A stretch of DNA of 64,000 bases from Amoebophrya sp. A120 (taxonomy: Eukaryota > Protista > Dinoflagellata), in assembly GCA_905178155.1 (NCBI GenBank), contig CAJINV010000014.1, positions 1,891,888-1,955,887 of the forward strand. Direction: 5' to 3'. Positions 256 through 63,828 of the stretch are shown here, piece by piece (position 1 is the stretch's first letter; each line of letters begins with the position of its first letter). A program made the position numbers and the translations under genes. The notes below the pieces were generated by a model. It saw only the letters and a list, made by a program, of their open reading frames with translations. It was not told where the DNA came from and searched no databases.

Positions 256-3200
256 GTAATTATTTCCACTTTGGGAATTTCCATTCTGAGGCTTTCATAG
301 CGCATCGCCGAGTCGAACTCCCGCGGCGCGAACCCTGGCGTGTGCGGGGCATGAAGATACACCTGCAGTTTGCTGTCCTGGTTGATCATGGCCCCAAAAT
401 CGATCAGGACCACATGCCCGGGCGCGGGCCTCTTCGACGCCCCTTTTCCGAGATTGCCCTCCCCAGAGGTTGCACCGCCGTCGTACGCAGGAGAGCTGCT
501 CCGTCGGTTGTCATTCAAAACGAAGAGCTGCTTCTTTGAGCTCTGTCGCCGCTGCACAGGAGCGCCGTCGGGTGCCACGTTGTCGTCCGTTTTGCTAGTA
601 GAAGTGCTTCCACCACCAGATTTATTGCCCTGTTGGAGCTCCCCGCCGGCACCAGGAGCTCCACCACCGTCTAGCAGCTCGGTGCTTCCAGACCGAGATT
701 TCAGTTTTCGCAACATGGCCTGCTGTTGCTTCTGGTGGTCAAACCCAGGGAGCTGGATGTTTTCGGAGTACATGATGTTGGCCGACTTCAGGTCGTGGTG
801 CACAATGCCCGCGAGCTTCATGTAGTACAGCGACATGGTCAACTCGCCCAACACACTGGCCAGCGCCTTCTTGGTCGCGAACTCCACTTGGTCCAAGCGC
901 CTGCCGTATCAAATGCAAAGTGTCTGGGTCTGGAAGAGTGTAGACTTCCTTGTCATGCAGATTTGCATGACGCATGAGGTCTGGAGTGCGGGACTTAGCA
1001 TGACAGACTCTGCGAGGTCTCTGCCATGCCTATTCTGCATGAGGAACTCCGTTCCAACTTGGTCAAAATTGGACAGCTTTTGGCACTCATGCAACACAGA
1101 TTTTTGCATGCTTCAGATTTACCATGACAAGTTGCATTCGTCCAGACCCAGCAGACATTCTTGCAATTCATATGCCGCCAAAGTTCACGATGACGTACAA
1201 CTCGTGCTCCGGGAGCGGGCTCCCGAGCGCCTTGTGGTCGGAAAAGTAGTTGTAGCCGCGGCGCTTCGGGGGGATGTTGGTTTCGTAGCACTGCATAAAC
1301 AAAAATCGGCTCGCGTAGTTGTACACCTGTCCAAATTTCTGCAGCGACAGCGCCCACTCACACTCGTCCCGGAGCCCGTCAATCGCGTCCTCGATGTCCC
1401 TATGACAAGATAAAGTGTTTGCGTTAGGAGCGGAATTTGTGATGCAGCAGTACTACATGCAGATGAACCAGAAGCGCACTGAAATTTGTTTAGCTGCATA
1501 GCATACATCATTTATGGCACCAGGGAAAAATTGTCATGCATGACGCGCATCCGCATCCACGAAAAGCTTTTATCGTCCAACACTTTTTTCATTGATAATC
1601 TCGCCGCCCGTTGTCGCGCCACTTCAAGTATGCATTGGAAAAGTTGTATCGCGCTTGCGTGTTGAATAGCAGTGTTGCATGCGCTCTCTCCTGAGGAGAG
1701 GTTCTTAGTAGATCTATCAGCTTCAGCATTACAAATCCCATTTTTCAAACTGGCAAAATTTAAAAATTTCTGATGCAATTCACACTAAGCGCGATTGTTG
1801 TACTTTTGCAGAGGATATCAGGTAGATTTTGTGGTCGTCCTGGCGGTTCTTCTGGTCCCCGTAGCGCGGGTCCGGGATCCGCTTCATCACTGCCAAATTG
1901 TTGTCCAGAAGGTTTTGCACCAGGTAAGCCTCCCCAAACGCGCCGGAGCCCAGTCGCTTGATCAACCGCCAGCGGGTGTTCCAGCCGGTCTGGTACAAGG
2001 CCTCCAGCAGTTTCACATTTTCCTCGACCGTGTGCGCCGGCCCGCTCGCAACCTCGTTGGCCCGCTCCACCTTCGGCTTGCGAACTTGCATTTCCACCAT
2101 CTGCAGCAGGGTCTCCTCGGTCAAATGCACCGGCGGCCCCTCGTATTCCGGCGTTTTGATTTTCTGATACGGCTGCAGCATGTACCCGGTGACTTGGTTT
2201 AAGCCGGAGAGTAAGTTGTTTCCCACCTGGTCCCAGTTCACTTCCGGGACTTCGTGCTCTGTTGACGCGGAGGAAGTCCTGGTGCCCCTGTGGTTCGTAC
2301 CTGCCGCCAGCTGCTTTTCTTGCAGCAGGTCTTGCACATCCACGCGCGACGCCGTGGTGCGCATGGGCTTGTAGACAACGTTTTCTCCTTGATCAGCATC
2401 GTCCTGGAGGTAGTTCTTCGCAAGGCCGCTTCCGCCTCCCCCGCCAGCAGCTCCGGTGGGGGACGTGGTTGCCGCGGGTAAGACTCCCGTCCGAAGGTCT
2501 TCGTCCTCCGGAATGGACAGATTGTCGACTTCCTGGGCTATCCTATGTAAAAACGTCCCCACCCCATAGTCAAGATGGGGACTCAGCTAGACAAATCCAA
2601 AAGTTTTGGCTGTTCAGCATGACAAATTTGGACTCGTATTGTCTTGCTGTCTGAGCTAGCTCAGCAGCATCACAGATCTAGTATATCACTATCATGCTGA
2701 TTGGAGCATGAGAAATTCCAAAACACGACTAGAAAACGCTTCTCGTGGTGCTCCGCATAAGAGACATTTTCAGCATGCAGATTTGCATGACAACTCTGGG
2801 GTGGGGACGTTTTTACACAGGATATGGGCGAGCCGTTCCTCATCCCGCAAAGATGAACCTTTTGAACCCGCTCGACCACGCCCCAGTGAAGGTTTCCCGC
2901 TAGAGTAAGAGCCCCGACCTCCGTAGTACGTTTCCTCTTCTAGTAGCTGCGGGAGTCTGCCACCCTTTGGCAAAACTTGCAGATCTTCCAGCTCTTCGTG
3001 CCCTGGTGGTTTATTTCGAATCGTGTTCGCCAACATTTTGGCGATTTTGGACGCGCGGGTGGCGGAGTTGACTGGGAGGTTGGAATTTTTTTCCGTGTCG
3101 TAGGAGGTAGTATGGAGCAGGTCCAGCTCGTGTTGGGACATCTTCAGGGTCGGGCCGTCAAACGGACGGTCGGCAAAAGTGGTTGTTGTACAACCCGAGT

Positions 3201-3315
3201 TGAAAAGGAAGAGGAACAGCATGCCCATGCAGCTAATGCCGTTTTTATTCCCAGCTGCAGCCGAAGATGCCGCTGCTCCGCTGGCGGAACGAAATGGTAA
3301 TGAACGGAAGAGCAT
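256..3315 (-). CDS. Ser/Thr protein kinase with N-terminal hydrophobic segment, multi-exon, probably 3'-partial (continues off window)
   Basis: Exons ~3315-2825, 2533-1818, ~1400-1173, 901-256. Spliced product has RLGSGAFGEAYLV (Gly loop), AVMKR, HHDLKSAN, DFG and APRE. Junctions read EERLA|QEVDN and VNFGG|RRLDQ after introner removal. Subdomains IX-XI are missing, so the stop at 249 is probably inside an intron. Confidence 0.85.
907..1172. mobile_element. Introner, family F1 (TIR TATCAAATGYAAAARTGTCTGGGTCTGGAA)
   Basis: DR tgccg at 902-906 and 1173-1177; removal restores the kinase frame. Confidence 0.9.
1401..1817. mobile_element. Degenerate introner-like intron (F2-like right TIR)
   Basis: Right end tacttttgcagaggata; left TIR and DR are eroded; internal ttgtcatgc/gcattacaaa motifs; separates two kinase exons. 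Confidence 0.6.
2539..2824. mobile_element. Introner, family F3 (TIR TATCCTRWGYAAAAACGTMCCCAC)
   Basis: DR tgggc on both sides; frame restored (LAQEV). Confidence 0.92.
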
Positions 3316-4339: not shown

Positions 4340-7300
4340 CTACAGCCTGCCCGGCGGCTCTCGCTTCACCGCTGGGTTTTCCACGGCGTGCTTCTTCTTG
4401 TCCGTCTTATACCGGCTGAATTCCCATGGTTTCTCGTGCTGATTTGGATTTTTCACCGTCCCCTTCGTGGGTTTCTTTCCTCGCCAGTGGCGTGGACTAT
4501 TGGGGCCCGCTTCGTGGCTTGGCGCGAACCACCGTCGCTCCCCATCGCGCCGGTCTTTCTTTGATGCCCTGCGGAATGGAGAGTTCTTTATCATGTCAGA
4601 ACGTATTCTACCTCATCTGGTAAAGCTACGTATAGATAGACCTAGAAGGTGCCTATCCTATAGCATGCAGCCCAACTGTAGGCGAAGTACGCACTTAGTT
4701 CAAATCTAAACAAAGAGGATTCAAATGGCAAAAAGTCCTCGAACAAAGAGAGTTGTAAAAATCCGTTACCTTGTCCCGACAAAATTATTTTGTTGCTGTT
4801 CCATCTCCGCGGCTTCTTCCTCCACAGCCTCGAGATCGAACATGGAATTCATATCCAGTTCTCGCTGCTTCGTTGCTTCATCTTCTCGGCTGAGGTACTC
4901 ATACACCTCGATCGGTTGCTGATGAACGGTCAACGACGGGTGGAAACCCTTCAAGGACTCGGGTTGCTGGGAGGGAGGTTGGGGCGGTTGCATCGTGGAG
5001 GAGGATGACGCAGCCGCTATCCTGTGCAAAAACGTCCCCACCCCATAGTCAAGTTGGGACTTTGGCAAGACAAATCGAGCATCTTTGGGACTCACGCATG
5101 ACAAGTTTGGCGACGCAGTGTAGTCGTGCCTATCTGTAGCTAGTTCGAACGCATCACAGATCCAGTCTGTCATCCTGATTAGCGCATGACAGATTCCCAA
5201 ACGCCACTAGGTAATGCCTCTCATGGAGAGCCACATGACACACATTCTGAGCATGTAGATCTGCATAACAACTATGAGGTTGAGGTGGGAACGTTTTTAC
5301 TCAGGATAGCCGCACCGCTGGCAGTCGGGTCCGTGGGAGATGGGGTGAAGTATCAGAGTGCGCAGGGGCAACGACATCAACTATAACGAACCCTGGCCCT
5401 CATCTGCTTCAGCTCTCAGCAACAAAATTATCAGTGCAACAAATCGTGTAGCCTTAGCATGACAGCAACAGACCCTTACCCGCACACATGATATCTACTT
5501 GCATGACAAAGTACAGTGAAATAGAGCTATAGTAATAGTAGTTCTTGCGCACTCTCATACGAAGTATGTGTTTTTCAGCGCATTGGTCAGGTAGGTCTCC
5601 CCAGGAGGAACGACCCTCACTCCGGCATTTTTCAGCTTAACAGACAAATGCTTCACGTCTTTTGTCGTGTCGTAGCCACGGTAGGCGGTTGCGCGAGATT
5701 CTGTTTTTGATGGCGTGCTGAACTGGAGCAGTCTTCTTGTTGAACTGCCGAACCTGTTGCACGGCTCTCATTCATACACAAAATTCATATAAGACAAAAA
5801 GCTTCTGCTTCATCTGTCCAAAGAACAAGAAAATCAGTACCGCTGTAACGCCCCCGCTCGGCCTTCATCTTCAGATGTTCCTTCAGCTTTATGCATTTCA
5901 ACCGCTGACAATTTGGACTTGCCGCACACTTGCAACTTCATGCATGACATTGACAACTTATCTTGGCTGCAATAATTTGTGAAGATGCTACACCGGCATA
6001 CTAAGGAGGGCAAACTGTCGGCTACGAAAATTCATCGTGCGCGTGGGTGTGCTGCAGAAGCAGTCAATCATTCAATTTACATTCGATAAGTTCTAGGGGT
6101 TCCAGATAGGCTAAACTCGGCTCGGAGTACAGCCGCTCACTGGTCCTGATGTGCCTCCGACTCGTGTGAGAGTGCAACATGCGAAGGTCGGCCGCTTCGC
6201 TTTGTCCGAGATCATTGACGTACCGCTCGTATCCACTGCAAATATGTCCGAGCTGCCTCCTGAACGAGATCTGTAACGACACGCACCATTCTCGGCTGGC
6301 ACGAATCCAAAGTGTCACATGCAAGTTGCTATCATGATCGACAAGCTTTCTTTGATGTTTATTTCCGTGTATCGTGATCAATTATCTTGTTAGCAAATTA
6401 TCAATACAGCAGCTTCTTCAACCCAGACCAAAAAATATCTTTTGCAGTGGATAGCGCACCGTGACGGGCGAGGGTCTTCAGATTGTACAGGTGGCTGCGC
6501 ATCATACCCTGTTGAGATTGTTGAGGCAGGTGTTTTCATACTTTCATAAACGCGTACGCAAAGATGAACGAGGGGCCGTTCATATGTTCAACGAATTTCT
6601 CTGAAAAGAGGACAACACACACGACATGCAAATAAACAAGTACCACGTCCGTTTTCAATATTTTCACGGTTTCCCTCCTTGCCCGCTCCTCCTTACTCAG
6701 CAAAGCGGTGGACTCGTCCAGGGCCCCACTGTCCTGGTCGTTTTTTTTGCTGTCCAGCCTGGCCTTTTTCTGCTCCTCCCGCCGTTTCCTGTCGTAGTGC
6801 CGGGCCAAGTGTCTCAACGTCGTCGGCTGTTCTCGGTTGTGGGCCGCTTGCTCTTGCGGGGACAGCAACGGGTCGAGGTTTTGGTGGTACTTTTGGAGAA
6901 TGTGCGGGTAGAAGTCCTGGCTGGTTTTGTGGCCTCGGGGCTGGCTCGAAGACTTCGACAGCATCGGCGAATTGAAATTGTTCGAGCTATGATTCATCGT
7001 CCCGCGTTGAGGCTGATCGTTGGAGTGTGTCTCCTCGTAATGGGCAGTTCGGCCATCTTCACTTCTTAGCATCATCATCATCATCGTCGAGATCAACAAG
7101 CCTTCATCCTAGGCTACCATACGTACCACAGTTCTGGACCACCAGCGAAGGTCAAAAGGAAAAGGATGTCGAAATGTTTCACTTTTTGACCCCGAAACAA
7201 AAAATCAGATATAAACAGTATTATACCGACATGGACGAGGCAACACTCATGTTCGGATTGAAGCCCCCATTTGATGATCCTCCGTTGCCCCTCCTCGCCG

Positions 7301-7436
7301 GCACGCCATTTCCGAATTTCTCCACGTATTCAAGCTGGTTGGTGCTCGTGATGTGTTCCCCCAAAGCCCGTCGGACCTCGGTGGACTGGGGAGGAACGGA
7401 AAATTTCATGGCATCTACGGCGGCTGACGAGTGCAT
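4340..7436 (-). CDS. Hypothetical membrane protein, ~9 exons (5 GT-AG introns + 3 introners)
   Basis: One open frame after joining: GT-AG introns 7226-7109, 6541-6509, ~6080-5905, ~5840-5754, ~4769-4608; introners 6230-6453, 5351-5559, 5018-5308. Hydrophobic segment VVLVYLHVVCVVLF. Confidence 0.65.
5018..5308. mobile_element. Introner, family F3
   Basis: TIR tatcctgtgcaaaaacgtcccca / tgggaacgtttttactcaggata; DR gccgc. Confidence 0.92.
5351..5559. mobile_element. Introner, family F5 (TIR TATSAGAGTGCRCA)
   Basis: tatcagagtgcgca / tgcgcactctcata; DR tgaag/cgaag (4/5); frame restored (NTYF|TPSP). Confidence 0.8.
6230..6453. mobile_element. Introner, F2-like, aged
   Basis: tatccactgcaaa / tttgcagtggata; DR gctcg/gcgca (3/5); frame restored (HGAR|YVND). 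Confidence 0.7.
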
Positions 7437-7957
7437 CTTGAGAATGGTTGGTTGCCGTTTTTGCTCAACAGGAGCCGGAACGCAACAACAGAAGATTTTT
7501 GATGGTATGCTCTAGATATTCGGAAGCTTTGACTATCTAGACTTCTGAAGACATCGCTGCGGTGTGGCAGAAGCGCAGCTTGGTCGTTGAAGAACTACTG
7601 CCTTGACAAATGGAGGACCCTCTCTTCCAAGGCAGTTGTATCAACTCAAGAATAAAAATTCAAATTGTGAAAACAAAAACCATATAATGTGACAGGAAGA
7701 ACAAGAGGAGTGGTCGAACACGGTAAATAATATGTGGTAGTATATGGTACGACCAGGAGGCTGCAACCTGGTGCAGCAGTCGTGCGCCCAGTCCAACTGG
7801 TGGCACGACGTCGATAGATTTCCACTACCACCTGGTGTAGACGTGAAGGTGCTTTCTTGTGCCGTGCTTCCCTGCCCTCGCAGTTGCTGTGCTTGTGACG
7901 AGCAATCATCTACCTGCTGCTCAGCATGTTAATGTCTTGCTCACAAACGGATTATAG

Positions 7958-9673: not shown

Positions 9674-10369
9674 AGCCTCGTGAGACGGAGCTTGTTACCA
9701 TCAACACGAGATGAAAATAAAAATCAGCGAACACGAAAAAGAAAAAACACCGAGTTGAACAAAAACACACCCACAATCATTAGATGATACAGTCGGGTCC
9801 GGCCTAGACAATGTTCAAAAACGGTAACGGAATAAACTGAGAAAGCTTACTTAATTGCACATTACTGGAAAAGCAAGCTTCGTTGCTCTGTCGTATGCTG
9901 CCCGAAAGATATGCGCTACGGCCGAAATTCCCTGCTCGGCAGCTTTTCTCGCTCTGCTTTTCGGGCGTTTGTGCTCTTTTTCGACCTCTGTGTGGACCCT
10001 TCTCAAACTAGTTCGTGAACTGGGGCAGTTCTCGTCTCGAGCCGATTCACATACTAATCTTCACAGAAACAATATCGCGGCCGGCCGCAAAACCAGAAGG
10101 GAATCTCGAATCTGAAGGACTTGCGCTACAGGAGCAGATTGCACAAGCTCAATAGAGCCAACATCGCACTCGGAACATAAGAAAACTAGCGAGCAATCTT
10201 CTCGACGGCCGATATTCCTTACCTGCGGGAAGCCAAAGAGAAGAGCCTGCGCTTTGTGCTCTGGTGGGGCGTTTTTGTATTTTATTTTTCTCTGAAGGGT
10301 AATGCGCGGCTTTTTTGTTGCATATTCATACGGCCAAGTCACAGTCGCAGAAGAACGTGCGAGGTAGAA

Positions 10370-10892
10370 GAAAATTTTGCGCAAGCAAAAAAAATCGCAA
10401 CACTTTCGTTCCCGCCACACGATCACACGAAAAAAATGAAAACAGTGCGCCTCGATGCGTGTGAGGGCGGCGTGGTCGCTTGACGTGCAGCGAAGATCGG
10501 AACAGAAATCTAGCCAAATTTTGGAAATTCGCGATACTTCTGCGTTGCAAAATGACATAGAAAAAACCGAAAAAACTGCGCCTCGCGTTTGAGGGCGGCT
10601 TGCCAGCTCGGCGACGGCAGAGACCGGAAAAGAAATTTTGCAAAATTTCGAAAATTGGCGATACTTGCCCGCCGTAAAATAAACCGAAAAAAATGAAAAA
10701 GCTGCGCTTCGCGTTGGAGTACAGCTTGGCAGCTCGAAGCGCGGTAGAGGCCTCATATATAAAAAATTCGGGCAAGTTTTTTGAGTTTCGCCATACTTTG
10801 AAGAAGAAGACGACACGAAAAATAAAATAAAGAGCCCTCACCTCGCCATTGGCGGCAGATTGGTAGCTTGACATGCGGCGAAGACCGGATAA
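10370..10892. repeat. About 4 degenerate ~130-bp tandem repeats (A-tract and CG rich)
   Basis: Recurring aaatttt...cgatactt...cgaaaaaa...tgcgcctcg...agct...gaccgga blocks starting near 10370, 10505, 10633 and 10761. Confidence 0.6.
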
Positions 10893-11730: not shown

Positions 11731-14700
11731 TCAGTATAGCGTCCTCGAGTTCCAGGCCAAAAACGATATCGCCAGAAAGTACATCAGAAAGCAGTAAAAG
11801 AACAGCATCAGTGTCGAAAAGTACCAACTGAACCATATGACCTGCTCAAACGTTACAATCTCAAACGTTACAATAGAATCTGGGATTTGTCTTGCATGAT
11901 CAACATGACAGACTCGGACAGCGTTCCACTTTCTGCAATACAAATTTCGCCAGATTGTAGTGGGGTTTGGGGCTCCGGAACTTGTCATGCGCAATCCTAC
12001 AAGAGTTTGCTAGATCATGCAACTTTGCATCACAGATTTCCATATTCTATTGTAACAGTTGACATTGTAACAGCTGAGCGCGTTATAAACCACCACGCCT
12101 CGGCATCGGCGGCGGCAATGTCCATGCGGGCCCACCACGTATCCCTTGCTGTGACAAAAGTGGCGTAGTTCGTGACCGCCCGATCTTCGGAAACCGACCC
12201 GGCGTTTGGCGGTGGGTTGATACTCGCGAACCCAACCGACGGGTTGTTCAAAGTTCGGTCGTTGAGGATTTCCGTTGCCACCGAATCGTTGGTCGTGATG
12301 TACGCCATCACCTTCAAGCCGAACGTGCTGGGCGTGATGTAGGCAAACCAGGAGATCCAGGACGGCATCTCCCGGACGGGCCGGAAAGACCCGGAAAAGC
12401 AGGTGGGCAGGGTGGAAAGGAGCAGCGGCGCCATCATCAACGCCCGATCCGGCGCTTTCGCGTTGGCCGTGGAGAGCAAGACGCCGATCCCCGACCCGCT
12501 GATCCCGAGCAACAGGGCGATGGCCACCCACGCGAACCAGTTGCAGGGGAGCCCCCAGGCGACGTAGGGGATGGTCATGACAATGATGGTTTGGAGGGTG
12601 ATCAACACCAATTCCACCACGAGTTTCGCGACCATGTAGGCGGACACCTTGTACAGGTTACTGTGGTACTCGCGGAGAAACACCGGCCGCTCCTGCGGCA
12701 CGGCTAGGGAGAGAGCGCTCGACCCGGACATCAACACCACCCAGGCCGTGAAACCGGCGGCGCCGTAGATGTCGATGATTTTCGCGGTGTATTTCATAAC
12801 GAGAAACTTCGCGGTCCACGACTGCTCCGGCGTCATTTGGCCGGACTGGATCATCTATCCTGTGCAAAAGTATCGCACTCGTAGTAATCGCAATCATGCA
12901 TTACAAATCTCCCTCTTAACCGAAATCCGCATCACAAATTCCATTTTTCATGCTGAGGGAATTTGTCATGTGATTTATGCTAGTAGTACGATGCTTTTGC
13001 ATTGCATATCATCTCCAGGGTGATGGGCGTCATCGTGCTGCTGTCGTAGAACGCGGTCCCGTCGTTCTCGCTGCCGTCAACCAGCTGTCGACCTAGGTTG
13101 AGAAAGGACAAGGAGTAGAATAGAATCTGCAGGGTCGGAATCACGAAACGGAACAACAGGCCGAAGGGGTCCCGGTGGCGGTGTACCGTTTCGCGGTGAA
13201 GTAGCAAGCACAACTGCGAGCAAAAGCCCTGAAATTGTGCGGTCTCCAGCTCCATTTCGTTTGTGACCGGAATTTCTTGCAAGTACTTCGTGTGTTATGA
13301 GAGTGCACAACTCCCCCACCCACTCATTTGTGTTGCATGAAGAGCAACACAAGCGCTGGCAAAGATGTAGCTTTTGCGTGGCAAATTCCTAGAGGATTGT
13401 AGTGCTGTTTTGGATTCCGGAGTCTGTGATGCAAACAGTGCTAACAGGCAAAGCGTGGACTTGCAATTTTGCATGACAAATGAGGGGGAGGGGGAGTTGT
13501 GCACTCTCATATGTGTTTCGTTTGGTCCAGAAACTTCCTTTTCAAAGCGTTCGGCGCGACCCCGAGGGAGTATCAAATGTAAAAATGTCTGGGTCTGGAA
13601 GAACGCAACTTGTAATGCATATTTCAGAACACAGAAAAGTCTCTCATGCATACGTAGCAAAAGCTGCCCATTTTCTCTCAGCAAAATAGGGGATTTGTGA
13701 TGCGGATTCGGCATTGCGGAAGCTTTTCGAAACCTGTGATGCTAGAGCTTTCATGCCAGGCCTTCCGTGTCATGCAAAAACAGCATGACTCTTCCAGACC
13801 CAGACATTTTTACATTTGATAGGGAGGGCCACAGGACAATGTCTCTCGCCGCGACCCGACTGTCGTTCACGGGTTTTTTCGGATTGAAATTGTCGTTCCG
13901 CAGACTAGTGTTGGATATGCATTGCAAAAGTATTGTACTAGTAGAAATAGCAAGACAAATAATGCCAAGAAGAGAAGTAGAATTTGTAATGCTGATTTGC
14001 CTAAGATCGGAGATTTGTCATGCGTCACTGCAATTACTACGAGTACGATACTTTTGCAGTGGATATTGGACTCCTGTTTGTTTTTTGAATCGATCTCCTC
14101 GACTTCCTCCTCATCCTCTTCCCGAAAGGTGATATCAAATGTAAAAGTGTCTGGGTCTGGAAACTTGTGATGCTGGGTGGCGTCTCATGATGAGGCTACA
14201 GATGCTGGCTCAGCATCACAAGTTTCTGAGCTCCTAGGTGTTGCCTATTCTGCATGACAAACTGCGCTTCTGCATCACAGAAAGACGGAGCTCTTGGGTA
14301 ACGTGCATGACAGATTTAAGAGTCATGCCAGACAAGCATGACAAACATGAATTCTCTCAGGAGACCCTGACATTTTTACAGTTGATAGGTGAAGAGACCG
14401 TCCAAGGTCGGCTTCGCCGTGTTTGCTCCAAAGCCGCCCGTGGTTGTGTTGTTCGCTGAGGATGAATTTTGCGCTGTTCTCCTGGATGCAGTGTTATTAT
14501 TCCCGAAGGAGCTGCCCCCAACTCCGGCGCGCATAGAGCCCATCGTGTTTTGGTGCTTTTTCCAGGAAAAGCTCGACCTCCGGTCCATCGAGACCACGTT
14601 TACCACGAGGTACTCGTTCTGCGTTTTATCGATGCTGTAATCCAAGAGTGGCACCCGGGGGGTCACATACCCGGGGTTCAGAATTTCGTACGCGCGGGCC

Positions 14701-17163
14701 GTTTGCTCTATGGAAGCGTCAGGTTTGAAATCGTCAAAGTTGAAATAATTTGTAATGCTAAACCGACCGAAACCACTACACAACCTGTAATGCATAAAAT
14801 GCATGACCCGAGGTACGTGTGTTGCAGAGCAGGCAAGTGAGGCCGATTGTCAGCCTGTTTGGGGTTACAGATCGAGCTGCTAAAGTAGCATGAGAAAATC
14901 GCTCTTCTTTGCCTAAACAGCATGACAAACTGGATTTAAGGACCACCGAAATTTGTCATGCGCCACTTGGAAACTGGGTTCCAACTGGCATCCATTTTAT
15001 GCATGGCAAATTATTTCAACTCTGTCGATTTCAACTCTGACACATCCATATGCTCGATGATCTCCCTAATCTCCGCCTCGTCGAGCGACTTATCAAATGC
15101 AAAAATGTCTGGGTCTGGAAACTTGTGATGCAAGTCAGGGAGCAATGCAAACACTGTAATGCACTGCCAGGCATGACAAGTTTTTCCGTGTTTCTGAGTT
15201 GCGTACTCCGCATGAGAAATTTCGTTTTTGCATGACAGAGAAGGGAAGGGCTTTGGGGCCACGCAATACAGAGCTCAGAGTCATGCGAGACTCGCATGAC
15301 AAATCTCGCAACCTCCAGACCCAGACACTTTTGCATTTGATACGACTGCGCCAGGTGCAACAGCCAATCGGCGAGATTGAACTGCACCGGCTTTGGGCGG
15401 GCGCAGATCAACGCGAGGAACCCCGGGATTGTGAAGATCGGGATCATTTTCTCATTTTTGTACTCCTGCTGCTGCACCATGGCAAAGGGGACCCCGGTTT
15501 GCTGGTCGTCCTGCTGCGCCGTCTGGGCCATCACCTCTTCCAGCTTCTGGTCGAATTGCTGTAGCAAATCTTGTTTTGGCGAAATTGACGGGGACGAGCC
15601 ATTCGTCTTGGGATTTTGAATTTGATTCGCTTGTTGCAGCCCTGGTCTGTACCCGAAGGCAGTTGTTTGCCCGTCTGTCGCTGCAGTCGCAGAGTTTGTC
15701 AACAGCAGCTCCTGATCTCTATTTGGGTTATTTGTCATCGTATTCGCAGCACTTCCCGCCCCAACTGTGGGATACAAATACGCCTCGCCGCCGAATTGCG
15801 TCAAGATTGCTTCTGCGGTTTTCCCGTTGTAGCCCGAGAAAAGGATTTCCCCGTCCCGCATGCAAATGACGCGGTCGAATTGGTCGAAGAGTTCGCTGGA
15901 CGGCTGGTGAATGGTGCAACAGATGATTGCCCGTTCCGATTCCGCGATCTTTTTCAGCTCTTGCATCAGCTCGAGGGACGAAAAGGAATCCAGTCCAGAC
16001 GTGGGTTCGTCCAGAAACAGCACGGACGGCTTGTTCAACAGTTCAATCGCGGCGGACACCCGCTTTTTCTGCCCGCCGGAGATCCCTTTCGTCAACGCAT
16101 CCCCGATCGGGACGTTTTTCACGTGGTTTAGGGATAACGTGTCCATCACGTGCGCCACCGACTTTTTCATTTGGTCCTCGGTGGTGGTGGTTGGGAGCTT
16201 GAGTTTCGCAGAAAATTCCAGGGTTTCCTCCACCGTTTGCGACCCCAACAGCGCGTCTTGCTGCATCACATACGCGATCGAAGACTTCAGATCCTCGAAG
16301 CTGACCTCCTTCCCGCCGTACCGAATTTCCCCCGTCAGCTCCACCCCGTTCCCCTTCCACGCCTGCCGCCCGGCGAGCAGATTCATCAACGTGGACTTCC
16401 CGGCCCCGCTCGGCCCGATCAGCGCACAGACCTCGCCCGGATAGAGCTTGCCGTAGCAGTTGGTCAAAATGTTTTTCCTCTTCGGCTTCGCACCAACCGT
16501 GAAGGTCAAATTCCGCCACTCCAGGCACAGCTGCTGCTGCTCGAGCAATTCGTCACTGTCATGCAGATCCTTGTCTTGTTGCGCCAACAGTTGCATATTC
16601 GCCATCGGACTGTTGTTGTTTTGGAGGTTTTGGCCGAAGTTATTATTTCCTCCCCCGCCTGCATTTGTCAACATGTCCCCGACGCAGAAGGAATGTCTGG
16701 GGCTCAGTTTCACCCTATCCTGCACCATCGCCCGCAGTTGCGCCCGCTCGACGGCAGTCAAAGTCTGCGCTCTCCTTTCTCCAGCCTCCCTCTGCACCTC
16801 CTGCAGCGCGTCTATGTCGTGCATATTGGTCGTGATAGCAGTTGTAGTTCCCGCGTTCGGCGAGTTGTAGCCGTTGGAAGTAGAATTGGTGCGGGTGAGA
16901 AGGTGAAACCCCGTGGTGGCGGGGCTGGGATCGGACTTCGGGTGCTGGTAGGGAGAGGGGGACTGGGGAGAGGTCGTCGTGTTTTTGATTTCTCCTCCTG
17001 CAAGAAGTGCTCCGGTACTTGTACCACCGTCGTTTAGCTGCACATGCTTACTCTGCTTCCTGTTTCTTGCGTTTAAGGACCGGGATTTTACCAGGAGGCC
17101 ACGCTCGAGGAGGTCCGACTCCTCCGTATACGAGTTCATTTCGGGGTAGTTGTCGTGCGACAT
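11731..17163 (-). CDS. ABCG (White-family) half transporter, 9 exons separated by 8 introners
   Basis: Walker A GPSGAGKS, signature ISGGQKKR, LFLDEPTSGLD, CTIHQP; TM domain with ERPVFLREY. Exons 17163-15343, 15085-15051, 14703-14388, 14127-14066, 13910-13822, 13565-13512, 13290-13009, 12850-12088, 11830-11731 join in frame and end ...AWNSRTLY*. Confidence 0.95.
11836..12087. mobile_element. Introner, family F6 (~44-bp imperfect TIR with doubled GTTACAAT)
   Basis: DR aacca; frame restored (AWWF|SWYF). Confidence 0.88.
12856..13008. mobile_element. Introner, family F2 (TIR TATCCTGTGCAAAAGTATCGTACTCGTA)
   Basis: DR tcatc; frame restored (LEM|IQSG). Confidence 0.92.
13296..13511. mobile_element. 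Introner, family F5
   Basis: tatgagagtgcacaactcccc / ggggagttgtgcactctcata; DR tgtgt. Confidence 0.92.
13571..13821. mobile_element. Introner, family F1
   Basis: Perfect ~32-bp TIR; DR gggag. Confidence 0.93.
13916..14065. mobile_element. Introner, family F2 (reverse orientation relative to the 12856 copy)
   Basis: DR ttgga; frame restored (QES|NTSL). Confidence 0.9.
14133..14387. mobile_element. Introner, family F1
   Basis: DR ggtga; frame restored (GLFT|FREE). Confidence 0.9.
14709..15050. mobile_element. Introner, family F4 (TIR TATGGAAGCGTCAGG..TGAAAT..TCAAAGTTGAAATAATTT)
   Basis: DR tgctc; core near-identical to 52167-52473. Confidence 0.93.
15091..15342. mobile_element. Introner, family F1
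   Basis: DR cgact; frame restored (LAQS|LDEA). Confidence 0.93.
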
Positions 17164-21800: not shown

Positions 21801-24310
21801 GCCGCTCAGGGAAAAAAAACTTGCGCGCGCGCAGCGCGCGAAATTTTTTTGAATTCGATCCCACATCGCCAGCAAGAGCGGCGCGCGGGGGGGCGGGCGA
21901 CGGGAGTGCCCGGCCGCTCAGAGAAGAAAACTCGCGCGCGCGCTGCCCGTGAATATTTTTTGAATTTTTTGAATTCGATCCCAAATCGCCACCCAGCGCG
22001 GCTCGCCGCCCAAAAAAAACGCAAACGCGAACGGAGCGAGCGAAGTCTGTTGGCTTCTTTTCTTTCCCAGCCTAGGCGTGGCTCCCGCGAAAAGGACTGC
22101 GTGGCCGCCCAAAAGAAAATCGATCCTCGTGCGCAGGCAGCGCGCGAAATTTCCATGCCCACGCGCCTGGCACGGCACTTGGGCGCCGCGCTGCCGTGAA
22201 GGAGCGCGCGCCTCCCCACGCGCTCAAAAGACAAAGCCCGCACGCGCAGCGGAGGTCAGGTTCATTCATTTCGATCAATACGCCTGGCAAGGTGCGCGTG
22301 AAGCAATGCGTGCCCGCACGCAAAAAAATAAAAAGCTCGCGCGTGCGCAACGCGCGAAAAATTAACCATTCAAACCACCCCACGCACTGCGTGTGCCGCG
22401 CGGGCAAGGGGGAGTGTGCGGCCGCTAATGAAAAACAAAAGCGCGCGCGCAAATTTATATTTTTCGATACCAGCACGCCGCAAGATGACGCGCGCGGGCC
22501 GGCGAAAAGGGGCGCCCGGCTGCTTACAAGAAAAAGCCAGCGCGCACGCAGCGCGCAGAAATTTTTTTCATTTCCGTCACGCCAGATGCCGCGCATAGGC
22601 GGGCAAAAGCACCCGGCCGCTCAAAAAGAAGCCCACGCGCGCACAATCTGCGGGAATATTCTTTATTTCCCCTACGCCGGCCGCCAGGTCGGTGCGGCAT
22701 TATTCTTTCTTTCCCCACAACTGACTGCGGGCAAAAAAAGAATGAAAAAGCTGAACCCCCAGAGGCCGGAACATGCACAGAAACTTGTTTCCCCGTCCAT
22801 GGGCACGGAATAAGAAGAGCACTTTGCAAAAGTCAAGCGAGAGGCGAACATCTCGCAGCCGCAACGTAGAGGCCCCGCGTTTACTTCCCCAAGGGTCGGA
22901 CCGTCACACTTGGGCTTTTGCGCCAGAGGAAGGCCAACAGCTTTTGCGCCAGGCAAAGGCGAAGATCAAACGCAATCGAAGACAAATCGGGGGCCGATAG
23001 ATTCGACGCGGGAGATTCTCTATAGGGAGAATCTCTATTGGGCGTCGGGAGAATTTCTATAATATTTTTTTTTTCTAGACATAACTACATCCGTGCAAAA
23101 ATAAAATACCAGAGATTCCCGGCAGCTTGAATTCCCCCTTGCCCAGGTAGTTCAGCAGCCCGAAGGGTCCGTCGATGGTGACGTAGTCGCCGACCTTCTT
23201 CTTGTCCAAAAAACACCCACTCATTTTTCCGCCGTCGGCCCAGTCCATTACCCGGCCGTCCGGCATGGTTACCTTGCCCGGTCGGTACATTTTTATCACA
23301 AGGTCCACGTATATCCTGAGTAGAAACGTACCCACACCAGAGTTGTAATGCAGATTTGCAAAGACAGGAAGACTTGTAATGCGCATCACCATGAGAGCCA
23401 TTTCTTCCCGTCCTTTTGGAATTTGTGATGCTGTAAACAGCATGAGCAGCTGGATTTGTGATGCGGCTGCACTTGCTAACCTGCACTACACTGCAGAGTG
23501 CAACTTGTCATGCGTGACTCACAAAACTCCTAGGTTTGTGTTGCAGAATCCCCATCCTGACTCTGGTGTGGGTACGTTTTTACTCAGGATAACGTAGCCC
23601 TTGACTTCATCCCCGGTCACCGGTGTGTAGGCGCGCTCGATCTGCTTCTTCGTCGCCTCGGGGTCCTCTCTATCCTGTGCAAAAGTATCGTACTCGTAGT
23701 AATCGCAATCATGCATTGCAAATCTTTATCCCAAGGCAAAATAGCATGACAAATTCCATTTGATGTTATGCGGAGCTAATTTGTATTGCAATTACTACTA
23801 GTACGATACTTTTGCAGTTCATACTCCCGCCCGTTCCAGGTCTTTTCGGATTTTGACAAAGCCGGATTCGGCGCGTACACCTGGAGATTCGTGGTTTTTG
23901 CACATTGCAAAGTAAGAACTTCTCAGCGCTGCTGCTGAAACGAATGTCTGCTCGTGGTTTGACACAAGGAATGACTGTACCTGCTTTTTTACAGAGATCG
24001 ACTAATAATCTCTGGTACTAGAACAAATCCTCTGCTGCAAGAAGTCTTTATATAGTACCTTGAAGTGCTTCCCCACTGGCAGGCCGAGTCTCATGCCGCT
24101 CCTCGGAAAAGCTAGTCGAATCTGCTTGGTATCTTCGCTAACATTGACGATCTGGCTGATTTGCAGCTCCGTTTTTTTCCTCTGTAAAACCACACCGCCT
24201 CGCTGGGTCTTGAACCAGAACACAAAGGTCGCAAGGATGGCAACCGCGGCGGAAATCAGTGGTGCCAAGGAGGCCAGGTCGATGTTGGCGAGTGTAGCGG
24301 GCGGAGCCAT
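18851..24310 (-). CDS. NADH-cytochrome b5 reductase, 5 exons
   Basis: N-terminal TM anchor, LGLPVGKH, RAYTPVT, DLVIKMY, GGKMS, GPFG, MMAGGSGITPMLQ, LLCGPPPM. Exons 24310-24059, 23880-23824, 23665-23592, 23306-23110, 19257-18851; GT-AG introns 24058-23881 and 23109-19258. Confidence 0.95.
19522..23061. repeat. Composite repeat island inside the 3.85-kb intron; possible non-autonomous element
   Basis: ATAGAGATTCTC/GAGAATCTCTAT motif clusters at both ends (19522-19780, 23010-23061); CTAGGCAGCC-type short repeats in both orientations 19780-20240; ~8 units of ~100-bp CGCG/A-tract tandem repeat 21190-21990. Confidence 0.7.
23312..23591. mobile_element. Introner, family F3 (reverse orientation relative to the 2539 and 5018 copies)
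   Basis: tatcctgagtagaaacgtacccacaccagag / ctctggtgtgggtacgtttttactcaggata; DR acgta; frame restored (KGY|VDLV). Confidence 0.93.
23671..23823. mobile_element. Introner, family F2
   Basis: DR ctctc/ctccc (4/5); frame restored (NGRE|DPEA). Confidence 0.9.
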
Positions 24311-50211: not shown

Positions 50212-52600
50212 TTAGTACGCAACCACCTCCGGCTCCATGTTGTCATTGCCCAAAGCGCTCTTCTTCCACATTTGGTCGACAAACGCGTCGGCCGCTTCCT
50301 CATCCTTGAACTTGATGATGGCTTTCCTGTTGTTTGTGATGCACAGAGCGATGAATGACGAGCAACATTGAAAATGTATGAATTGTCATTTTGCCGTAAA
50401 CTTCTAATTGTTGTCATGCGTCAACGAGGTATGCAAAAGTGGTTTCTCATGCTGGAATAATCATAAAGCAATCATAAGCAAGACAAAAATCTCTACCCGG
50501 CCTTGATCTCGGTGTGGGAAGGTTCGTATTTTGAGAACTCATCCTTCAAATCTTTCCACGTGACGGTCTCCTTGAAGCCGGCGATGTGGACCTGATAGAG
50601 TTGTGTAGTTTACCATGCAGAAAACCAAAACGTAGCCACAGTGTAGGAACCATCGTCGCAACTGCTGCATTTCAGGTCGTCATGCGTGCTGGCGCGCAAG
50701 AGCAAGTGAGTCTGTCTTGCAAGAATGTGATGAAATGTAGCGTAAATAAACAATACCGCAACTTCGCCTTCCCGGTCCTCGGACTTGCGTCCTGCCTTCT
50801 TTCCCTTTCCCTTGCTGCCCTTCTTTCCCTTGCCCTTGGAGCTGGACTTGCCCTCGATGTAGCGGCCCTCGCGGTCCTCACGCACGAAAACGGCGCGACC
50901 GTCGAGCTCCGTGTCGTTCAGTTCCTCGATCGCCTTCTTTGCGTCGTCCGGGTTCTTGTACCGAACCAAGCCCGCACCGGCAGAGCGTCCGTCCTTGGAC
51001 TTCAGGATATCGCAGTACTCGACCTGTTATATGTTTGGTTATTTTCCTCACGTTGGACTTCTTCTACTTGCACTGATGATATATTGATATGTCGTGCGCA
51101 GTAGATTCAACAAAACTACGTTTGACATTTAGATTTACATGGCCTGCTTGACGCTGCAAATGCAACATCCACATACTTTTCCATTTCCATTTGTGCTGAT
51201 CCTGATGCTGCTTTAGCATTAGAATGACAAATTGAAAGTTTACCTCGCCGGCGCTGACCATGTGGTCCTTGAGGTTTTGCCAGGAAGTGTAGTAGCTCAG
51301 GTTTCCATATGAACTGCAAAAGTATCGTACTCGTATAAATGCATTACAAATTTCCTCAGCATGAGAAATAAAATTTGTGATGCGGATTTACCGTAAGAAA
51401 AAGATTTGTAATGCATGACTGCAATACGAGTACGATACTTTTGCACAGGATATTCCAACGTACACTTGCGCGGCTGCGGAATCCTCGCTCAGCTGCTTGC
51501 CCTTACCTGTTTGTAGGTGTTTGTGGTAGTGTTTTATCCGCATGACGAAAGTATCATGATCTATTACCGCGCCGAAGCCGACGGGCCAGGCGGGTACGCT
51601 ACAATTACATAACGCACGAGCTGCGCTGCAAATGTGTCGTGTGTGCCTGCATTAGCGATGCGATAGTCGAAGGACATTTATCAAAATAACGCGATGCATG
51701 AGCGCGACTGTAAAATTTAAATTACCCTTGCTTCCCGGTCCCTTGCCGCCCTTCTGGTCGAGGCGCAGGAAGATTTCCCGGCCCTTCAGCACCTTATCTG
51801 CCATGGTGTCGATGGCCTTTTGTGCGGCATCCGCGTCCGCGAATCGCACGATACCGTGCCATATGGATTGTTAACATGTCTGGGTCTGGAAGAGTGAAAA
51901 AATTGTCATGCATATTTCTCATGACCCATGATAGTCTGTGATGTATGCCCTAGCATTACAGATTTTTAGAAATCTTCCTGATGCACCTTCCGCATGAGAA
52001 ATGCCCTCTCGCCATGGCAAAAACTGGACCCCTCTTGGTGGTCATGCATTACAGGTTTTTTTCGAATCCGAAAACAGCATCACAAGTTACAACCTTCCAG
52101 ACCCAGACATTTTTACATTTGATATGCCCGGTTTTTCGCCCGTCCTTGTACTGCAGCACCTCCGCGTATGGATGTGTCAGAGTTGAAATCGACAAAGTTG
52201 AAATAATTTGTCATGCATAAAATGCATGACCCGAGGCACGTTTGTTGCAGAGCAGGCAAGTGAGGCCGACTGTCAGCCTGTTTGGGGTTACAGATCGAGC
52301 TGCTAAAGTAGCATGAGAAAATCGCTCTTCTTTGCCTAAACAGCATGACAAACTGGATCTAGGGACCACCGCAATTTGTCATGCGCCACTTGGAAACTGC
52401 GTTCCAACTGGCATCCATTTTATGCATTGCAAATTATTTCAACTTTGACGATTTCAAACCTGACGCTTCCATACCGCGTGCTCGAAGGATTCCCCCACTT
52501 CTGAGTTCTTGAAGAACTCCTTCAACTCTTGCCAACCAACCTGGAAGGACAAGTTTCCACAGAACACGCTGCGGCTGCCGGCGTCAGTTCCCTCGGTCAT
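50212..52600 (-). CDS. Three-RRM RNA/G-strand-binding protein (Gbp2/Hrb1/hnRNP-M-like), 8 exons
   Basis: SVFCGNLSFQVGWQELKEFF, QVYVGNLSYYTSWQNLKDHM, VHIAGFKETVTWKDLKDEF, LDGRAVFVREDR; GT-AG introns 51725-51507, 51243-51024, 50762-50592, 50496-50327 plus 3 introners. Confidence 0.9.
51308..51452. mobile_element. Introner, family F2 (reverse orientation relative to 12856 and 23671)
   Basis: DR ttcca; frame restored (VYVG|NLSY). Confidence 0.93.
51862..52124. mobile_element. Introner, family F1
   Basis: DR tgcca/tgccc (4/5); frame restored (KTG|HGIV). Confidence 0.9.
52167..52473. mobile_element. Introner, family F4
   Basis: DR ccgcg; frame restored (EHA|EVLQ). Confidence 0.93.
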
Positions 52601-56100: not shown

Positions 56101-56780
56101 CATTCCAGGCAGGGTCCCGGGGGACGGGCTACGCCTCAACAACCAGACGAACAAAACCCCAACCCACTACAACACACCTAAACACCCAAAACGGGGAATG
56201 GGGCCGGGCACAGGGACGGGGCAAAGAAATGGGCGCCGGGTTTTTTGAAAATCCCGGAAATTTTAGCCATCTTTTAGCCGCAAAATCCGCCCGGGGCGTC
56301 TCCGCATGACGCGCCCCAAAACGGGCGGCCGACCACTTAGGAGGGCCAAGCGGACGCGCGCAGTACATACATACACGAGAAAAGGCGGCGCACGCGCCAA
56401 AACGACAAACAAACCCCCGGGCGGGCTGATTGTCACGCGGGCGCCCTCATGTGACAGGTGTCGTCGTGGAAGACCAGCTCGATGCTGGGGCATTCTCCAC
56501 AGCGCACGCCCCAGGAGCTTGCCCCAATCCGCAACCGTTTCGCCTTCCGGGAAGACGTCCCGCGCGCGCCCGAGTCCTTTGCGCCTCTAGTCGCATGGCG
56601 CCCCGGCATGCGGACGATTCCCCGGGAAGGTTAGCCGCCAAAACGCCCGCAGAGAGCTCTGGGCGGGTCGCGAAGGCGCAAAAGAAAAAGGACGCGCCGC
56701 CGGGCTGTCCTCTGCTGCTAGAACAACGCCAAATCCCTCGAGAACCAGAACACAGCCACCGCACCCCTCCAGAGAAGTAC
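53160..56780. repeat. GC-rich A-tract non-coding island with a long imperfect palindrome
   Basis: ~60-bp imperfect IR at 54126-54186 / 54921-54983; compositionally distinct from its flanks; boundaries approximate. Confidence 0.55.
55327..55575. repeat. Minisatellite of ~13-bp units (CGGCCTCTAAAA.), about 18 copies, decaying rightwards
   Basis: Directly visible ctctaaaa repeats. Confidence 0.9.
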
Positions 56781-57153
56781 GATAGGAACTTGTGAGGGAC
56801 GAGCTGCTGCAACGAGAACACCTCCTGCTGCATGCTCAAGGATGCTAAGAAGAGCCGTCGATAGCCATGGCATTCCATCACAAGTCCGTATGGGCATAAA
56901 TCATAATCAGTGCTGTCGCAAATACTAGTAGGCAATCTCAATTCATCAAATTCGGGACATGTTCCGCCTCCGGGTGGGAGAAAGCGTTCACGTCAAATTA
57001 TTTTCATCAGCTAAAGGCAAGCATGCTGGAATGTCGAGACCAGTAGGCAACATCAGCTGCGGTACTTTCCTCTGTTCAGTACGTGTAGTTACACAGACAA
57101 TGACACTACATCACCACTTCAAAAAGCTGCTAGCATCTCGTCACACAAGAACA

Positions 57154-60100: not shown

Positions 60101-61369
60101 TCTTTCCCCGAGAAATTCACATCTTCGGCCAACTTCACCAGACAGGGGTTATTATTTTCTCCGGTAGAAGTTGTTCTTGAAGACGGAGGACAAGCTTTCG
60201 ATGGGATTTGCGATGCTAGGAGAGGAACTAGAGGCACAGCAGGTCCACGACTTTTGTGCGCTCTCCGATTTGCGACCGCGACGGCGTTCGCTAAAACTTG
60301 TTGCCGCAGCTGCAACATCCACTGTGGCAAGCGAATTCGGAGTTTTAGACCTGGGGGAAGGTTGTTGTTCTCGGGCCGCAGTGGTTCTTGTTGGTCATGC
60401 GAGTGAAGGCCTTCGGCTTCGTCGAGGAGGACCTCTCCTTCTTCCTCTGCTGCTGGGTCGACATCACCAGGAACAAAATCGTGCTCTGTTTGCTCAACAT
60501 CATCCCGAGGTCCTCGCGTGGTAGTCCGTCTCCGTGATGCTGATGAAGAAAAACTAGATGGTGCAGACTCTGGTCCACTCGTAGTTCTTTCGTCCGCTGC
60601 GGAAGTTGGCCTAGAAGATGTTGCTCTTCCTCTTGCGTCTTGTTCTATGTGTTCTTGATCTTTGTAGGTTACAACTTTCTTCTATCAAACAAAAAAAGTT
60701 CGTCACGATCACTCATGCGCATTTTTGCAATACAAAACTGTTTGTCATGCGTCAAAATGCATCACAGCCAAACTTCATTAGAGATTTCCCTAGTGTTTCT
60801 GCAATACAAGGAAACTTTGTGATGCTGAGACAATTTGTAATGCAAAACCTGCAAGTTAGTGACTGTGACAAACTTTTTTCTCTCCATATCTTCACCTCGC
60901 GCAGAATCTCTCCGTCGCCAAACAAGTCGTCCGGATCATCGTCAACATCTACTTCGTATCAACTGTAAAAATGTCTGGGTCTGGAAGATTCCAACTTGTC
61001 ATGCTGATTTTGGATTCTAAAAAAATCTGCATTGCATGAGCAGCAAAGAGAGCCCAAGTTTTGCTACACGGAAAGAGCATTTGTCATGCGGTATAGGCAT
61101 CCGGAAGCCCTCACAAAATCTGTGATGCTAGGGCATGCATCACAGACATCAGGAGTCATCCAAAATGTGCATGACAAGCCTGGCAATCTTCCAGACCCAG
61201 ACATTTTTACATTTGATACTTCGACCTTATCTTGCTTTGATGTCGTCCGTTGTTCCGCTTGGATCATGTCCAAGTTTTCGCTTGCTTCCTCATCGTCGCG
61301 GTCACTGTCGTCGTTGTCGCTGATTACAGGATCGTCGTCCTCGTAGAGACGGGCGCTACTAACCGCCAT
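57154..61369 (-). CDS. Large acidic/low-complexity protein (~1250 aa), possibly TFIIF alpha (RAP74)-like; 3 exons
   Basis: Exons 61369-61219, 60951-60889, 60677-57154 join in frame. YTLEDAELVMKKRK resembles RAP74 LTLEEAEE..K.R, followed by an acidic tract and a compact C-terminal helical domain. The CDS is solid; the identity is tentative (~0.3). Confidence 0.8.
60683..60888. mobile_element. Introner, family F7
   Basis: tatcaaacaaaaaaagttcgtcac / gtgacaaacttttttctctccata; DR tcttc; frame restored (EVK|KVVT). Confidence 0.88.
60957..61218. mobile_element. Introner, family F1 (reverse orientation relative to 907 and 51862)
   Basis: DR cttcg; frame restored (KVE|VDVD). Confidence 0.93.
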
Positions 61370-62073: not shown

Positions 62074-62986
62074 GACTCACAACACTTTGTTTTCACGGAA
62101 CACAAACAGAGAACTTACTTGCGCTTGGTCTTTTATGTGATTTTGGTCGTCATTCATCTTGGTTCGGCTAGCGGAAGCGGAATTAATACAACTACGAAGA
62201 CCATACAGGCTCTACAATCAATGTTGATCATTTTTGACTGACGAGTCCTGTGCGGCAAAAAACCACGACCACGACCACCTCTCCGCCGGCTCAGACGCAA
62301 GCATTGTTTTTTTTCTCTGTAGTGGCTGTTAGGTAAAAAAAACGCTTTTTGTAATTGTAGTCGCGCTGCTTTTCATTTTTCCAGCGCGACGCAAAAACTC
62401 GCCCGAGCAGCGCATAGGTATTTCGTGTGCTTATTCCCGCACCGTGCGATCAGGCTCGCAGTGCACATTCCAAACCCGTCGCGATCCTCGTCCTCCGCGT
62501 TGATGATGATGTTGGCAGTGTGCCCTTTAGCGGACTGCTGCGTGCTACTCCCTCCTCCAGCCCGAGAGCAGCTGAACGCCGATCCTCTATGACGAACAGT
62601 TGATCTATACCATAAGGGCGCGGCTGTTATGAGGCTAGGTTTTTTTCGGACTTGGGTGTGGGCCTCACACTCACACACGTCGTTCAGGGGGGACCAAAAA
62701 CGCACACACTGTAGCACTCTGCATTAGTGTAGGGCGAATCTGATCAGCGACCGAGCCGAGGCTATCAGCCTTGTTTTTTAGGTCCGGCGCAGGGAGTACT
62801 TAAACTCCACAACGGCTCGGTCACTGTAGCTCGAGCACCGGACCCACTGCGTATTCCATGACGCAGCGCATACATTTCCCAGTATTAAAAATAAAAACTT
62901 TTTGAAAAAATCTTCACAAACTCGCCCTTCAGCAGAACTTTCCTCCGACGAGGATTGATTCTCTGCTTGCGAATAGGTCTACTTTT

Positions 62987-63828
62987 TCACAGGAGGAATA
63001 ATCCCGAACCGGAAGCGCCAATTTGTCCCTTTGCCAATTGTTTGTACATCCGGGTGATATCTGCTTGCTCCAGGTTAATGTCAACAAAACTCTGAGTACT
63101 AGTATCGTCTTCATCTTCATCGTCCTCCATATCCGTTTCCCCCTCGTCGGTAATCTCCTGCAGCTTCTCCTCCAAAACCTTTTCACAACCGCTTAAATCG
63201 ATCAGCTCCTGTTGGAAAAATTCCAAACTCACCGGGTTGTGGGCCCTGAAAATGTTGACCTCCGGCTTCTTGAACGGAATATGGAAGCGTCAGGATTGAA
63301 ATCCTCAAAGTTCAAATAATTTCTCATGCAGAAATTGCAAGGCATGAAGTGCCTCTCTTGCAGGGATTGCAAATGAGGCCGATTGTGAGCCTGTTTCGGG
63401 TTTGGAATAGAGCTGCCAAAGTAGCATGACAAAGGGCGCCTTCTGTCCCTAAACAGCATGACAGACTGGCTTTAGACGGTGCCGAAATTTGTCATGCGCC
63501 GCTGGGAAATTGGGCTTCCAGCTGGTATCCGTATCGCTTTTATGCATTACAAATAATTTCAACTTTGACGATTTCAATCCTGACGCTTCCATACGGAATG
63601 CCCCACTCGTAGTAGACGTCGTCGAAAGAGAGTTTGTCATCTTCGTCGTCTTGTAAAGCTACCTTCCACGGCTCCGGCATGAGTGCGAGGATAAGCTCTG
63701 AAGTGTTGGCAGAAGTTGAGGTCGTTTTCTTGTCGATGTAGTCCGCGGTGAGAATCTCAGCGAGCGTGTAGGAGTTTTGCTTCTGCGGCTTGGTCGTCGT
63801 CGGTGCTGCAGTATCGATAAAGTTCTTC
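62987..63828 (-). CDS. Hypothetical acidic protein, 3' part (5' end probably off window)
   Basis: Open frame KNFIDTAAP...YYEWGIP|FKKPEV...GLFLL* after removing introner 63280-63593. Confidence 0.7.
63280..63593. mobile_element. Introner, family F4 (diverged copy)
   Basis: tatggaagcgtcaggattgaaatc / gatttcaatcctgacgcttccata; DR cggaa. Confidence 0.92.

Follow-up and report, generated by a model that had tools for sequence, protein, structure and literature searches.

A 64,000-nucleotide stretch of the Amoebophrya sp. A120 genome (contig CAJINV010000014.1, forward-strand positions 1,891,888 to 1,955,887; hereafter, the window) harbors 25 short elements that begin with TAT, end with ATA, carry terminal inverted repeats (TIRs), and are flanked by 5-bp direct repeats (DRs). 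These elements are removed at the RNA level, without a scar and together with exactly one DR length; the cut lies inside the 5-bp repeats, and TAT and ATA delimit the element, not the intron. They are the published A120 introner elements of this marine parasitic dinoflagellate, a system already known, and what is new with respect to the published description is the register of the cut, plus the absence of a GT/AG preference and of an orientation bias. A re-tooled spliceosome, one that takes its bearings from the element ends in place of GT-AG, may well splice such introners. We assign the window to A120 because its spliced ABCG gene is identical to an A120 protein and the elements share the published signature.

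Elements are skipped in RNA-like contigs and their removal restores a known protein

RNA-like data came from four contig runs of one study and two samples (X3, X4, and X6 from one, X5 from the other), with their RNA nature a guess; no run recorded as RNA covers the stretch. Between positions 700 and 7600, these contigs show 12 joints, four of which are GT-AG introns, whereas the other eight skip exactly one element plus 5 nt, at all eight elements of the region; run X5 contributes only the eight joints of the second gene. The record coordinates leave space for no added letters at any joint. In the kinase gene, the skipped lengths are 271 nt (266 + 5) at 907..1172 (exact DR, CGGCA in transcript sense), 202 nt (197 + 5) at 1401..1597, 194 nt (189 + 5) at 1629..1817, and 291 nt at 2539..2824 (exact DR). 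In the second gene, they are 296 nt at 5018..5308 (exact DR), 214 nt at 5351..5559, 204 nt (199 + 5) at 5890..6088, and 229 nt at 6230..6453; all window elements are given on the minus strand. The first-pass annotation, made from the letters of the window alone, had proposed MITE-like (miniature inverted-repeat transposable element) insertions with a 5-bp target-site duplication (TSD), removed scarlessly from RNA, and the eight joints in RNA-like contigs bear this out.

Protein identity extends this result to the ABCG gene. Deletion of all eight elements plus 5 nt each yields a product identical at 1173 of 1173 residues to P0001, a protein named Amoebophrya sp. A120; when the last element (11836..12087, with one TATA end) is left in, identity to P0001 is lost after residue 1141. 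The other seven, each found by the scan described below and supported by P0001 identity, lie at 12856..13008, 13296..13511, 13571..13821, 13916..14065, 14133..14387, 14709..15050, and 15091..15342. ABCG orthologs align without gaps at three well-conserved element junctions (protein level only). In-frame removal, which had been claimed for all 22 sites then known, is thus backed by RNA-like contigs (eight elements) or by P0001 (eight) for 16 of 25 elements, and for the other nine it is read from open frames and by eye.

A hairpin bounded by a short direct repeat is a classic substrate of the template-switch artifact, and the joints could be reverse-transcriptase template switches over DR-flanked hairpins, with the elements staying in the mRNA. 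The runs are contigs with a guessed RNA label, but we consider this reading very unlikely: if retained, 24 of the 25 elements would disrupt the frame or introduce stop codons, the cases of disruption include eight elements in the one ABCG gene and four in a Rab5-like gene whose aligned exons match P0122, and elements with no predicted stem and two DR mismatches are also skipped, in the same register.

We give still less credence to excision from DNA before transcription, as for the internal eliminated sequences of ciliates. The ends are transposon-like, and a rare excised form could sit among the DNA-like joints beyond those listed; however, DNA-like contigs carry the elements at a depth equal to that of flanking unique sequence (≈23 to 26 versus 25 to 31), and a staggered register of 1 + 4 or 2 + 3 in transcript sense suits RNA processing. 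In the DNA-like run X1, contigs 1110-2565 and 5203-11863 pass ungapped through five of the eight elements tested. The window may itself derive from this run, whose joint table is flooded by repeat copies, with 665 rows beyond those listed. One run contributes 18,710 matching contigs with depth heaped on the elements, in keeping with their repetition. Raw-read runs X9 and X10 gave nine and four matching reads, within elements only, too few to inform.

A common signature defines 25 elements in the window

Scanning for TAT...ATA pairs spaced 60 to 1500 nt apart and flanked by 5-bp repeats returned 18 pairs with an exact DR and a TIR score of at least 8, against a shuffle mean of 0.05 (maximum 1; 20 shuffles). 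These 18 and four elements with mismatched DRs (5351, 6230, 23671, and 51862) are the 22 elements of the first-pass annotation; three decayed elements absent from that set (1401..1597, 1629..1817, and 5890..6088, the last visible only through its RNA joint) make 25, of 145 to 547 nt. TAT, which the search itself required in 24 of the 25 cases, starts all 50 element ends, and C or G follows directly in 49, in agreement with the TAT(C/G) end rule put forward earlier; A occupies end positions 11, 12, and 13 in 36, 39, and 44 of the 50 ends, respectively. BLAST clustering resolves 14 groups (five multimember and nine singletons), compatible with the earlier count of at least eight TIR families. 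The elements, 6.2 kb in all, contain 70 copies of an internal motif, GCAT(G/C/T)ACA, and the other 57.8 kb contain six. The length of element plus 5 nt lacks a factor of 3 in 18 of 25 cases, as had been stated for most elements, and six of the remaining seven have stops in all three minus-strand frames. T is rare at DR position 4 (1 of 25 elements here and 14 of 155 in the related genome described below), and the flanks are likewise T-poor. Scanning the window with a position weight matrix revealed no further clear element, and Rfam returned no match.

Related loci provide a larger sample

A TIR pattern search of metagenome_contigs gave 150 loci (489 kb), and all of the matches listed are on JACKZZ01 contigs. 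Their proteins are ≈80 to 100% identical to A120 orthologs, and the loci therefore represent a close relative of A120. With the TIR as sole criterion, 303 elements were obtained; their 5-bp DR is exact in 217, has one mismatch in 38, and has two in seven, while exact repeats of length 3, 4, or 6 to 10 occur in at most six of the same 303; length plus 5 modulo 3 is distributed 74/67/76 in the 217 exact-DR elements. Strand was inferred from codon scores: 50 elements were dropped for more than two DR mismatches, overlap, or an edge (253 left), and 63 for a locus edge or a weak or discordant strand, leaving 190 oriented elements, 155 with an exact DR. Elements with unlike ends fall 26 in one orientation and 25 in the other, i.e., randomly. 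When ends are anchored on the inner TIR, TAT is present in 266 of 271, a figure to be read with the equal conservation of positions 6, 8, and 9 and the choice of loci with TAT; one anchor gave nothing and one was unspecific.

Two loci hold long copies of the commonest family with unrelated interiors and exact 5-bp repeats, L068:4787-5758 (972 nt) and L044:3862-4492 (631 nt); neither contains an open reading frame (ORF) of more than 86 codons. L068 also bears, at 903-2087, an exon for the largest subunit of RNA polymerase. Two further candidates for long TIR elements were rejected, L062 as a span of several short elements and L065 as paired internal repeats, as were two viral-contig matches (L151 and L152), which match by chance inside a coding region of 29 to 30% GC that lacks the structure of an element.

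The cut falls inside the direct repeats

We define k as the number of upstream-DR bases left in the exon, in transcript sense. Five joints at mismatched DRs limit k: 1401 (GAGAT/GGGAC) to 2 to 4, 1629 (CCTGA/CTTGA) to 2 to 5, 5351 (CTTCG/CTTCA) to at most 4, and both 5890 (GAACT/AAGCT, in an old element with a decayed TIR) and 6230 (TGCGC/CGAGC) to 3 to 5. The sole values compatible with all five are k = 3 and k = 4, and therefore the intron neither begins at TAT nor finishes at ATA. The earlier description of the introns as bounded by TAT...ATA is accordingly withdrawn: a cut at TAT is incompatible with joints 1401 and 5351, and one at ATA with joints 1401, 1629, 5890, and 6230. The suggestion that mismatched DRs would fix the exact cut succeeded insofar as it left two values; no window element is mismatched at position 4.

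Such mismatches occur in 8 of the 190 oriented elements of the related loci, five of them altering a residue, and orthologs were sought for four of these five. L032 is a Rab5-like gene that contains four elements, and there k = 4 gives Ala and k = 3 gives Asp; the residue is Ala in the A120 ortholog P0122 and in 35 of 54 alignable homologs (150 fetched), and Asp in none. L137 speaks against k = 4, since k = 3 gives Lys, as in the A120 ortholog, and k = 4 gives Arg, a conservative change. L019 is ambiguous as to k, and the ortholog search for L066 found none. On balance, k is probably 4, i.e., exon|N-TAT(C/G)...(C/G)ATA-NNNN|exon, with one base before and four after the element. As a small, post hoc observation, the upstream copy is C in six of the eight position-4 mismatches among L001-L150.

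Among the literature searched, with subscription papers and some figures and supplements outside it, we found no publication that settles either the register of the cut or the removal machinery in Amoebophrya.

The elements are those of a known introner system

The earlier annotation had linked the elements to Amoebophrya introners as a general phenomenon; the link is closer than that, as the same signature and the identical A120 protein mark the published system itself. Farhat 2021 (PMC7789003), cited here, like the other papers below, from part of its content, describes 29,850 A120 copies in 1954 families, with inverted repeats that begin with TAT followed by seven variable bases and at least three A, and DRs of 3 to 5 nt that span the borders between exon and intron. 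The window elements do not differ in kind: they share the TAT + 7 nt + AAA inverted repeats, the 5-bp DR, the length of ≈240 nt, the many families, the noncanonical ends, and the RNA support (PMC7789003). The difference lies in the border, which the legend to Fig. 3 of that paper gives as unknown and variable, with the text mentioning four bases of the repeat ahead of the 5' end; here, five informative joints fit one register (3 or 4, likely 4). Another Amoebophrya uses GT-AG, according to the portion consulted of PMC12005148.

Fritillaria borealis noncanonical introns and the introners of Micromonas, Aureococcus, and Polarella are likewise TIR/TSD transposons turned introns, as described in part of a review (PMC11282704). 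In contrast, those are handled by the U2 spliceosome with preferred AG-AC/AT or GT/GC-AG ends, often co-opted from the TSD, and the elements studied here prefer none.

Two candidate machineries for removal

How the elements are removed is the question on which the readings divide. Canonical introns were considered and rejected. GT-AG or GC-AG ends are possible in 0 of 25 window elements, whichever of the six placements in the DR is chosen, in line with the earlier failure to see a GT-AG pair, and AT-AC is possible in one (13296..13511); no GT/AG enrichment is found in the 155 oriented exact-DR elements. The hallmarks of a U12 intron are an RTATCCT donor and the U11/U12 small nuclear RNAs, and this reading was rejected as well. 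TATCCT stands at the transcript 5' end of only 5 of 25 elements, and minor small nuclear RNAs are absent according to the part of Farhat 2021 used here (PMC7789003).

In the spliceosomal proposal, catalysis would be by the U2/U5/U6 core with an altered end-recognition step, and both cuts would be fixed by distance from the element ends, register 4 being N-TAT(C/G)...(C/G)ATA-NNNN. With k = 4, T falls at intron +2 and A at +3, which matches the four canonical donors resolved in the same genes (GTAA, GTAC, GTAC, and GTAT). The portion of Farhat 2021 consulted (PMC7789003) reports 83 of 89 spliceosomal proteins, along with U2, U4, and U6 (U5 in A120) and with U1 not found; its Table S4 shows T at +2 in every one of the commonest noncanonical sites, for both strains. 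We lean narrowly toward the spliceosome because of the fit at +2 and +3, because nearly all spliceosomal proteins and U2/U4/U5/U6 are kept, and because a long stem is dispensable. That one register fits five joints and that the internal motif is shared are consistent with a single end-recognition machinery for all elements, as first proposed.

Several points weigh against the spliceosome. To our knowledge, a free +1 base and a free last base are unlike any known spliceosomal intron. G at DR position 5, directly before TAT, shows no excess (49 of 155), and AG at DR positions 3-4 is found in 15 of 155 elements versus 16 expected from base counts (10, 8, and 9 in other registers). No hybrid intron, with one canonical and one element end, occurs among the 12 joints, and contigs conceal minor junction variants. 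The prevalence of T at +2 in Table S4 may stem from a bias of the aligner.

The other serious candidate, to which we attach somewhat less than an even chance, is a separate, nonspliceosomal nuclease plus ligase that recognizes the TAT(C/G) ends and their stem, as proposed for Euglena. The free boundary bases, the lack of hybrids, the symmetry of the signals (asymmetric elements split evenly by orientation), and the predicted pairing of the first terminal pair (≥0.6 in 20 of 25 elements) all suit it, and the Euglena code likewise sets a motif at a constant distance from each of the two cuts (PMC12501133, in part). On the other hand, 1401, 1629, and 5890 are removed in RNA-like contigs despite nearly nil predicted pairing (0.00 to 0.04), which shows a long stem to be dispensable, register 4 aligns T and A with canonical +2 and +3, and no candidate enzyme was identified.

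Parts of Nomura 2025 (PMC12501133) and of the review (PMC11282704) show further likenesses of the nonconventional Euglena introns to the elements studied here: a proposed MITE-like origin, paired ends, free boundaries, a motif at a fixed distance from each cut, and coexistence with GT-AG introns. Excised circles are also reported for Euglena (PMC11282704). The codes differ, being CDG/CH'G with spacers of 3 and 5-6 in Euglena versus TAT(C/G) with spacers of 1 and 4 (or 2 and 3) here, and the lineages are unrelated; the euglenid signature 5'-N3CDG...CH'GN5-6|R was accordingly rejected for the window elements on both motif and spacers. Only tentatively do we entertain a second, nonspliceosomal machine in Amoebophrya that reads exon|N-TATS...SATA-NNNN|exon, in which case alveolates would have independently invented the Euglena solution.

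Transposon nature and insertion

The elements are likely nonautonomous DNA transposons that duplicate 5 bp of their target, a reading we favor because they have TIRs, a duplication of constant length, a high copy number, and internal motifs in common; MITE features (TIRs, a fixed-length TSD, short and noncoding) are all present. Insertion would be by an integrase-like (Ginger-like) transposase encoded elsewhere. This is the best candidate because A120 family 38, a Ginger-like TIR introner (Gozashti 2025, PMC12130899), has a 5-bp TSD, TA/TA termini, and Copia/Gypsy-like ORFs. Compared by description, family 38 shares TSD, termini, and organism with the window elements and differs in being ≈808 nt long with these ORFs, versus 145 to 547 nt and noncoding (PMC12130899). 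Against the transposon reading, no transposase was found in the window ORFs scanned (24 of the 68 listed plus one shorter frame) or, for the related loci, among the 70 longest of their 265 ORFs, and no integrase-like ORF with element ends appeared in either. The search for a transposase or recombinase in long copies, suggested earlier, thus came back empty in the window and in the 489 kb of related loci. If the removed piece takes 1 + 4 = 5 repeat bases, the coding sequence would be restored for any target and in either orientation, which would explain the spread of the family through exons.

Host genes and surroundings

Pfam agrees with the host genes named earlier: kinase (weak, below the cut-off), ABC_tran/ABC2_membrane for ABCG, FAD_binding_6/NAD_binding_1 for the cytochrome b5 reductase, and RRM_1. 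All identified window genes lie on the minus strand, an arrangement that recalls the unidirectional gene clusters known from Amoebophrya. The cytochrome b5 reductase-like gene carries elements at 23312..23591 (scan, open frame, Pfam of host) and 23671..23823 (scan; DR GGGAG/GAGAG). The same gene contains an ≈3.85-kb intron (≈19257-23108) with GT-AG ends by eye, which holds a GC-rich array of ≈103-bp units (20.4-22.6 kb) and, close to each of its ends, short repeats rich in AT. The longest element (547 nt; 41964..42510) lies inside a 1960-codon open frame of unknown function.

In the RRM protein gene, elements identified by the scan and the Pfam match of the host lie at 51308..51452, 51862..52124 (DR GGGCA/TGGCA), and 52167..52473. 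AT-rich noncoding parts of this gene at ≈50100-50500 bear four copies of GCAT(G/C)ACA, one such part having GT-AG ends; these stretches are perhaps remnants of old elements. Scan and open frames place two elements in one gene of unknown function (60683..60888 and 60957..61218) and a third in another (63280..63593). The position weight matrix also marks a single end at 250..299 that resembles the 14709/52167/63280 family, with its other end not identified within the window; two opposed arrays of a GC-rich 11-bp unit at 1-220 adjoin it at 299 and possibly represent a large insert nested in this element. A GC-rich intergenic block (53400-57000) contains a 62-nt inverted repeat (54125-54186/54922-54983) and a 13-bp tandem array (55292-55499); four ORFs scanned there have no Pfam match.

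Implications

A fixed cut register would replace "highly variable splice sites" by a simple rule, open to checking across the genome with existing data, would correct gene models, and would show where a branch point or circle junction should be sought. If removal is spliceosomal, the spliceosome concerned would disregard G+1 as well as the terminal AG. If it is not, this would be a second eukaryotic mRNA splicing machine, whose spacers would sum to the 5-bp target duplication such that every insertion, in either orientation, would be a perfect intron at birth.

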